Assembly: GCA_951406725.2 (NCBI GenBank)
Contig: OX597830.1
Coordinates: 30,504,001-30,568,000 of the forward strand
DNA from: Octopus vulgaris
Taxonomy: Eukaryota
Reading direction: 5' to 3'
DNA length: 64,000 bases
Part shown: positions 6,020 through 6,614 of the stretch, piece by piece
Layout: every line of letters begins with the position of its first letter
Position numbering within the stretch: the first letter of the stretch is position 1
The notes under the pieces: model-generated
The model's database searches: none
The model's input: only the letters and a program-made list of their open reading frames with translations
Told to the model about the DNA's origin: nothing
Position numbers and translations under genes: made by a program

Positions 6020-6370
6020 GCAGGAAATTCACTTGACTGAGACATTGAATATTCCCTACATTGTTTACATATTCACATATGTGTCCTCATCTTGAGTAAT
6101 GTTTAAGTGCGCGGGCTACTAAACCAAGGATTGCGAGTTCAATACCAGGCAATGCCTTGAATAAATAATTCAATTTATATTGAATAAATAAATTTATATT
6201 GAATAAATAAAAAGTAATTCAGTTGACTGAGCAATAGAATATTCCCTACATTATTTACATATTTAGATATGTGCTCTCATCTTATGTAATGGTTAAGAGC
6301 GCAAAGATTGCGAGTTCAATTCCAGGCAATGCCTTGAATAAATAATAATAATAATAATAATAATAGTAAA

Positions 6371-6425
<55 letters not shown>

Positions 6426-6614
6426 TCAGCAAAAATACCATAGGAATGAGAACCCAGGGTTGTGTTCAAAATTCTACTAGAGCACTTGATGAAGGCTGGA
6501 GAGTAAATCAACCGAAACGTTGTGGTGACAACAAACAAGATGAGGACACGTAGCTGACCAAAGTAAATAACGTCAATAATCTGCAGAATTCCTCATCTCT
6601 AAAATATAGAACTG
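6020..6614 (+). mobile_element. tRNA-headed, HHR-bearing element with duplicated head and inverted 5' segment
   Basis: tRNA-like heads 6094-6160 and 6286-6337, (AAT)n 6341-6423, HHR-like 6483-6524, 3' end cctcatctctaaaatatagaactg; homologous copy at 41492-41735(-). Confidence 0.75.

Follow-up and report, generated by a model that had tools for sequence, protein, structure and literature searches.

A tRNA-like head in the solo pseudo-LTRs of an octopus Penelope-like element: a candidate captured Pol III promoter

Reverse transcription by the Penelope-like element (PLE) Poseidon_Ac of Anolis carolinensis starts, in vitro, at two sites internal to its ORF, and its hammerhead ribozyme depended on protein to cut, while insertion in vitro could proceed without the ribozyme, according to the accessible text of PMC11167929. 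Inverted 5' pieces and one-sided tails are described as standard PLE features in the accessible text of PMC8557442. The promoters of PLEs are barely characterised, the sole described example that we found being LINE-like. Surveys of cephalopod repeats list Penelope and tRNA-SINE families, and their accessible text contains no structure such as that reported here (PMC13282606, PMC8967140). A tRNA-derived segment in a pseudo-LTR (pLTR) was not reported in the literature searched, with Repbase, Dfam and older subscription papers lying beyond the scope of that search.

The window, that is the whole 64,000-nt stretch of Octopus vulgaris DNA analysed, contains two insertions. Copy 1, on the + strand at about 6047-6621, bears out the predicted order of head, (AAT)n tract, minimal hammerhead and defined 3' end. 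It opens with the first left copy of an 8-bp target site duplication (TSD; 6047-6054, +), the identical 8-mer standing at 6047, 6237 and 6614. There follow an inverted pLTR piece (6055-6094, -), corresponding to the post-hammerhead region at unit positions 113-151 without the tail, and a tRNA-like head (6097-6169, +). The same arrangement then recurs, with the left TSD copy that adjoins the insertion (6237-6244, +), an inverted pLTR piece at the 5' junction (6245-6284, -), again matching the post-hammerhead region, and a second head (6287-6346, +) with an internal deletion of around 15 nt. An inverted post-hammerhead piece thus precedes each head, at ~6055-6094 and ~6245-6284, as had been proposed. 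Copy 1 has two heads because its 5' junction, with flank and 8-bp TSD, has been locally duplicated: 6026-6169 and 6216-6346 form a tandem duplication, 81% identical, which takes in flank and TSD. Both heads are 5'-truncated, beginning at about head position 13, so that the description of two tRNA-like heads with a B box stands but the A box is broken in each. An (AAT)n tract (~6347-6423, +) leads from the head to the start of a Penelope-like ORF, whose first 56 codons together with the 3' tail occupy 6446-6614 (+), with the ATG at 6446 and, in this copy, a stop at codon 36. Within the ORF lies a minimal type I hammerhead (6483-6524, +) carrying C3U at 6486 and a G-to-A change at 6511 that breaks one helix II pair; in an intact copy, cleavage is predicted after 6521. 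The sharp 3' end is at 6614, a base shared with the right TSD copy (6614-6621, +).

Copy 2 (41492-41735, - strand) belongs to a different subfamily and runs from an inverted piece (41704-41735) through (AAT)n, an ORF start at 41642 and a hammerhead (~41574-41611, -; G12A at 41584) to the tail. It is flanked by a 12-bp TSD (41736-41747, -; partner at 41480-41491). The predicted TSD, inverted piece and G12A are all present in this copy but it has no tRNA-like head. Similarly, the contrast of single core changes, C3U against G12A, is seen, except that copy 1 has the helix II change at 6511 as well. Both copies are decayed. Rfam gave neither hammerhead nor tRNA matches in the window, in 5950-6700 or in eight loci, and ARAGORN called no tRNA in the window, producing only a distorted fold from the head majority. 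The Rfam matches listed for the window are nearly all to microRNA models, far under gathering scores, those displayed as alignments lying on dinucleotide repeats. Elsewhere in the window, 24001-32000 and 48001-50000 show strong GC skew (0.5-0.75) over several kb and are probably simple-repeat arrays.

The expectation of a genome-wide repeat family was amply confirmed. Exact matches in the genome G000 (2.8 Gb) number 8,251 for a hammerhead 19-mer and 5,491 for a head 19-mer, with none for either reversed control, and the unit is present in nine of 60 fixed-position 10-kb stretches. Copies number tens of thousands genome-wide and could be mislabelled as tRNA SINEs. Among 62 scored copies the hammerhead core is intact in 31, while 13 carry G12A, a common decay, and two C3U. 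The core is nevertheless whole in the majority sequences of both subfamilies, as the original prediction held for the consensus. These subfamilies differ at the ORF start only by 6- and 9-nt indels, and both keep the frame. TSDs of at least 8 bp flank 10 of 46 copies (1.2 expected), and an inverted piece lies upstream in 23 of 30 hammerhead-centred loci. Among the first 100 listed of the 8,251 hammerhead matches, 12 of 14 close pairs are inverted and two are on the same strand (within 250 nt); no array of three hammerheads occurs among these 100. The 3' ends of units fall in two clusters, at ~144-160 and 181-198 of the majority and thus ~40 nt apart, and the same two ends recur in contigs from other sequencing runs.

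Some further features of the copies can be recorded here. The region C1:170000-1500000 of G000 has 32 exact hammerhead matches, some eightfold denser than the genome mean of ~3 per Mb. The (AAT)n tract hosts other elements, among them a repeat of at least 600 nt which itself ends in (AAT)n, and young LINE fragments, 94-99% identical between most copies (L007, L009, L011, L021, L023, L239, L278; L248, L253). Such inserts agree with TAA-targeting by LINEs of Dong/R4 type. A second sequence lies upstream of the unit in five of 29 top loci; we discarded it as a possible alternative head because it is also found without the unit and sits inside (AAT)n tracts.

The unit proves to be the solo pLTR of an autonomous Penelope-like element, because the end of an ORF precedes the head and the 3' end of the unit continues in frame into the N-terminus of that ORF. 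The first of these connections was seen in L014, one of 29 close relatives, where ~320 nt of broken coding sequence lie directly 5' of the head; this locus also joins the window subfamily to the ORF. When the coding stretch and head of L014 were used as query, the same join was found in 30 of 30 loci, a result biased by a query itself selected for the join. In an independent set selected by the reverse transcriptase (RT) region, the ORF end is present in 17 of 30 loci, 16 of which go on into the head. Contigs from runs of four organisms also bridge ORF end and head. At the other side, the reading frame in L067 continues without a shift from the 3' end of the unit into the N-terminal part of the ORF, and a pattern lying just beyond the tail has 95 matches, with the unit directly before it in most of the 30 examined. 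L308 and L329 show head, (AAT)n, unit and ORF uninterrupted, and L310 is a tandem junction. The monomer order is hence ORF (RT and GIY-YIG-type endonuclease), stop, ~30 nt, head, (AAT)n, next ORF start, hammerhead and two 3' ends. The proposal that Penelope-like machinery, and not a LINE, mobilises the family is borne out, the unit being the pLTR of an element with RT and GIY-YIG. In contrast, the unit is not non-coding as had been supposed, for what follows (AAT)n is the ORF start, in frame with an 832-codon majority, and the idea of an independent retrozyme fails since the hammerhead part continues into a PLE ORF, with ORF sequence joined at both ends of the unit.

The column majority of 89 loci gives this single frame of 832 codons, with its ATG 34 nt before the hammerhead core and with RT and then endonuclease motifs in order. 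Its first 75 residues match the N-terminus of a full-length homolog, P0003 (46% over 70 aa, E 2e-12), in an alignment which takes in residues encoded by the hammerhead. Single loci give an RVT_1 match (L047, E 3e-11) and a stop-free frame of 569 aa (L072). Of 7,999 proteins scored, 2,923 are homologs at E <= 1e-20, those listed bearing mostly RVT_1 and PF26215. Over residues 506-609 of the homolog P0069 the C-terminal region shows 37% identity (E 3e-19), and residues 505-562 of P0069 pass the Pfam GIY-YIG cut-off; Pfam gave no direct GIY-YIG match on the family's own endonuclease segment, and a PDB sequence search with the protein yielded weak RT matches only. The second half of the endonuclease motif reads YKG in L036 and L072 and in the closest two homologs of full or nearly full length, P0001 and P0003, and YIG in P0069. 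Pseudo-LTRs, partial tandems and inverted 5' pieces are present (L331, L350, L310, L072). By every feature tested, namely a single RT ORF, a C-terminal GIY-YIG, pLTRs and inverted pieces, an optional tail of 30-40 nt and a minimal hammerhead, the element is an EN+ PLE, the name of the Penelope/Poseidon clade applying by architecture only.

Two minor groups of ends were seen within the ORF. Of 29 distinct loci extending beyond the tail, nine end 71-84 nt deeper in the ORF, at around locus position 1560-1575 when oriented like the element (L305, L312, L314, L319, L321, L323, L324, L326/L327, L328), possibly at a third RT start site or an RNA 3' end. Seven of 29 ORF-linked copies (L032-L060) have 5' ends within 30 nt of one another, at majority positions 1972-2001, which may mark a minor point of stalling or stem from misalignment.

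Octopus tRNA-derived SINEs were reportedly described in a 1994 paper. The predicted tRNA origin and Pol III boxes of the head hold well for the present family. Among 30 tRNA genes of the same genome, the best match to the head majority (61 copies) is tRNA-Arg, Arg genes taking the three highest local scores, and the global score of 44-45 compares with a maximum of 35 in 300 shuffles. Descent from tRNA-Arg is likely rather than certain, because tRNA-Thr reaches 41 for one subfamily and not every isoacceptor is among the 30. Measured against a SINE promoter consensus (PMC8969392), the main-subfamily head has an exact A box, a 33-nt spacer and a B box matching at 10 of 11 positions. Both boxes are kept in 30 of 78 heads. 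The suggested linkage of head and hammerhead was also upheld, the unit lying downstream in 78 of 90 head loci. A free, head-only SINE found no support among the 12 heads without the unit, eight of which adjoin other PLE pieces. The 14 nt directly 5' of the head, for example in L037 and L329, form an imperfect inverted copy of its first 11 nt, which would suit capture of the head by the fold-back process that also generates inverted termini.

Where copies begin is the observation that bears most directly on the function of the head. We mapped 5' ends in 90 head loci, all on contig C1, drawn from the first 100 listed of the 5,491 head matches; two neighbours of chosen matches and the last eight were left out, and a few of the 90 are neighbours or likely duplicates. 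Relative to the head, 12 ends lie at +11 or further 3', 64 between +10 and -25, and none between -26 and -60, while the remaining 14 copies extend into the ORF by 60 nt up to over 300 nt. Short, head-initiated copies therefore make up 76 of the 90. Put another way, 64 of 78 copies at risk (82%) end within 36 nt, from -25 to +10, and the end rate is 0.043 per nt in this zone against 0.0023 further upstream (P 2e-23). The ends are spread over the 36 nt, with no single start site. A UTR 19-mer just 5' of the head has 1,142 exact matches against the 5,491 of the head, and its retention in ORF-linked copies is no worse than that of the head 19-mer (16 against 12 of 29). Three other sequencing runs gave 268-386 contigs with loose ends at the head start, using a reference from which the first six head bases were absent. 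Given this pile-up of ends close to the head's 5' edge, the template RNA probably starts at the head and, judging from these genomic copies, there is a good chance that the boundary corresponds to the RNA 5' end.

The best reading of the boundary and the boxes together is that the tRNA-derived head is a captured internal Pol III promoter, housed in the solo pLTR, which sets the 5' end of the element RNA. We favour it at a probability of roughly 55%. Transcripts would then begin at the head. Element protein would bind the ORF-start region and reverse transcription would proceed from one of two internal sites, as with Poseidon in vitro, the cDNA running ~300 nt to the RNA 5' end, where it would often fold back or jump template. 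What inserts would be a short copy made up of head, (AAT)n and hammerhead, with an inverted piece at its 5' end. In RNAs that begin at the head, copying from the first pLTR would give the short majority class, and copying from the downstream (second) pLTR of longer RNAs the minority long class that reaches into the ORF. Solo copies with both boxes (30 of 78) could themselves serve as templates. If short head-started RNAs are indeed copied by the element's own protein, the pLTR would therefore behave as a built-in SINE of its own element. Since uncapped Pol III RNA translates poorly, the ORF protein may need another transcript.

The first alternative is that these are ordinary 5'-truncated Penelope copies in which the tRNA-like segment simply rides along, inert, within the 3' UTR, and reverse transcription stalls and folds back at a hairpin on its 5' edge. 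A hairpin over the head's 5' edge is indeed predicted at -13.4 kcal/mol, against an ORF median of -3.4, an adjoining inverted piece is found at 52 of the 90 ends, truncation with inversion is the norm in PLEs, and RNA-seq revealed no discrete RNA. Nevertheless, at four ORF hairpins of comparable strength (-11 to -14 kcal/mol) only four of 40 passes end, to be set against the 82% of copies stopping in 36 nt, although the control is a small one, in which 29 of the 40 passes come from a single hairpin situated at the margin of the region used to select loci. Furthermore, the pile of ends persists in the 38 copies without inversion, and in L305, L307, L317, L321 and L325 an ORF fragment jumps to a copy that begins at the head start. 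We consider this explanation unlikely.

A second alternative, in our view similarly improbable, accepts that RNA starts at the boundary but attributes it to an internal Pol II promoter, the tRNA-like segment being incidental or the source of downstream elements. Ten ends at -15 to -19 lie over a pyrimidine-rich, initiator-like stretch, and a capped RNA would ease translation of the ORF. PLE promoters, moreover, sit in the pLTR, and the accessible text on the Drosophila element describes a TATA-less internal promoter (PMC2377424). Such a promoter, however, would not account for the position of the boundary at an intact A/B-box module with the spacing of a tRNA or, a weaker point, for the missing T4 runs.

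The T4 evidence is as follows. The sense strand of the 2,496-nt majority ORF has no T4 run where synonymous shuffles lead one to expect 2.9 (P 0.02), and single copies have 11 against 42, though copies are not independent. LINE ORF segments of the same genome, taken from within loci already collected, have 12 where 20 are expected. The depletion is consequently a weak signal and partly generic, given that LINE segments are depleted too and that single copies are not independent. Other PLE families were sought as a control but all 30 loci examined held the same family; a DNA search for a LINE control gave no match, and an unguided ORF survey SINE frames only. That Pol III also reads the whole ORF is, on this sequence evidence, doubtful. 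Equally tentative is the fullest version of the idea, in which the PLE would have swapped its promoter for a tRNA-Arg-derived A/B-box module and be transcribed by Pol III end to end, free of T4 over a 2.5-kb monomer, with the ORF translated from Pol III or ribozyme-processed RNA and every solo pLTR a self-propagating SINE.

RNA-seq from three runs of a related organism covers head and unit deeply, on both strands equally, and 78-79% of reads run on into unlike sequence. These three runs show no piles of read starts or ends, the cleavage site included, although short or circular RNAs may escape capture. Copies embedded in host transcripts would give this pattern, which lends no support to a discrete Pol III RNA or to cleavage, though such reads may be unable to reveal either. 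Folding of the hammerhead monomer yields z-scores of -0.1, -1.8 and -1.8, none significant; by prediction the ribozyme would cleave only when dimeric or assisted by protein, and it need not take part in insertion.

Finally, a stand-alone Pol III retrozyme or SINE, non-coding and doing no more than borrow PLE proteins, would suit the excess of short copies (76 to 14) and of head over UTR 19-mers, the TSDs and the two same-strand pairs, but it is largely refuted and most improbable, given that every part of the unit belongs to the autonomous element, that both subfamilies keep the frame and that of the window is joined to the ORF in L014, that close pairs are mostly inverted and arrays absent among the first 100 listed matches, and that eight of 12 unit-less heads adjoin other PLE pieces.

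If the favoured reading of the head as a captured Pol III promoter is correct, this ORF-bearing PLE, with a tRNA-type promoter at its 5' boundary, would be a rare autonomous retroelement with a SINE promoter, and would show how repeats combining Pol III and hammerhead, like SM-alpha of Schistosoma, can arise from pLTRs; were the whole monomer read by Pol III, the route from PLE to SM-alpha-like repeats would be direct. For the model in which PLE reverse transcription initiates internally, the sharp 5' boundary also provides genomic support from a second lineage of animals, through the combination of two 3' ends inside the ORF with short copies that stop at the RNA start. Should the hairpin or the Pol II explanation be right instead, the element comes down to a conventional PLE whose UTR harbours a fossil tRNA.

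Among described systems, Poseidon_Ac is alike in its single ORF for RT and GIY-YIG, its partial tandems, its pLTR hammerhead overlapping the ORF start and its two RT start sites within the ORF, which yield an optional tail. It differs in that its ORF starts at stem II, whereas that of the octopus element starts 34 nt before the core, and in its pLTR neither a tRNA-like segment nor a Pol III promoter is described in the accessible text (PMC11167929). The minimal hammerheads of metazoan PLEs, as given in the accessible text of PMC4209133, share the extra nucleotide between 9 and 10.1, the G10.1-C11.1 pair, the short helix I and the palindromic 15.2-16.2, and likewise occur mostly solo or as inverted pairs 100-700 bp apart; the octopus helix II, of 5-6 bp, sets it apart. 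The word 'tRNA' has no occurrence in the main text of that paper. Penelope of Drosophila virilis also has a promoter internal to the pLTR that drives the downstream unit, but the accessible text presents it as TATA-less and LINE-like, with no tRNA-type A/B module (PMC2377424).

Non-LTR retrozymes resemble the octopus unit as short hammerhead-bearing units related to PLE pLTRs (accessible text of PMC7229834 and of bioRxiv 10.64898/2026.07.22.740005, the latter with no occurrence of 'tRNA', 'pol III' or 'promoter'). They are defined, in the accessible text of both, as non-coding tandem arrays giving circRNAs, whereas the octopus unit is coding and dispersed, with neighbours inverted rather than tandem. 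Membership of that class was rejected on its coding capacity and on the absence of tandem arrays among the first 100 listed matches. The unit shares with tRNA-derived SINEs the A and B boxes at a spacing of 30-35 nt, in the majority sequence though not in the window copies with their broken A box. It was not assigned to that class as it is not separate from its partner's ORF, but its short copies probably work like a SINE. The nearest parallel for promoter plus hammerhead is SM-alpha, compared here by description, a short repeat in which a Pol III-type promoter is followed by a type I hammerhead (accessible text of PMC6765202 and PMC8490949). SM-alpha is a non-autonomous, SINE-like tandem repeat without an ORF, while in the octopus element the putative promoter and the ribozyme both lie within an autonomous, ORF-bearing element.
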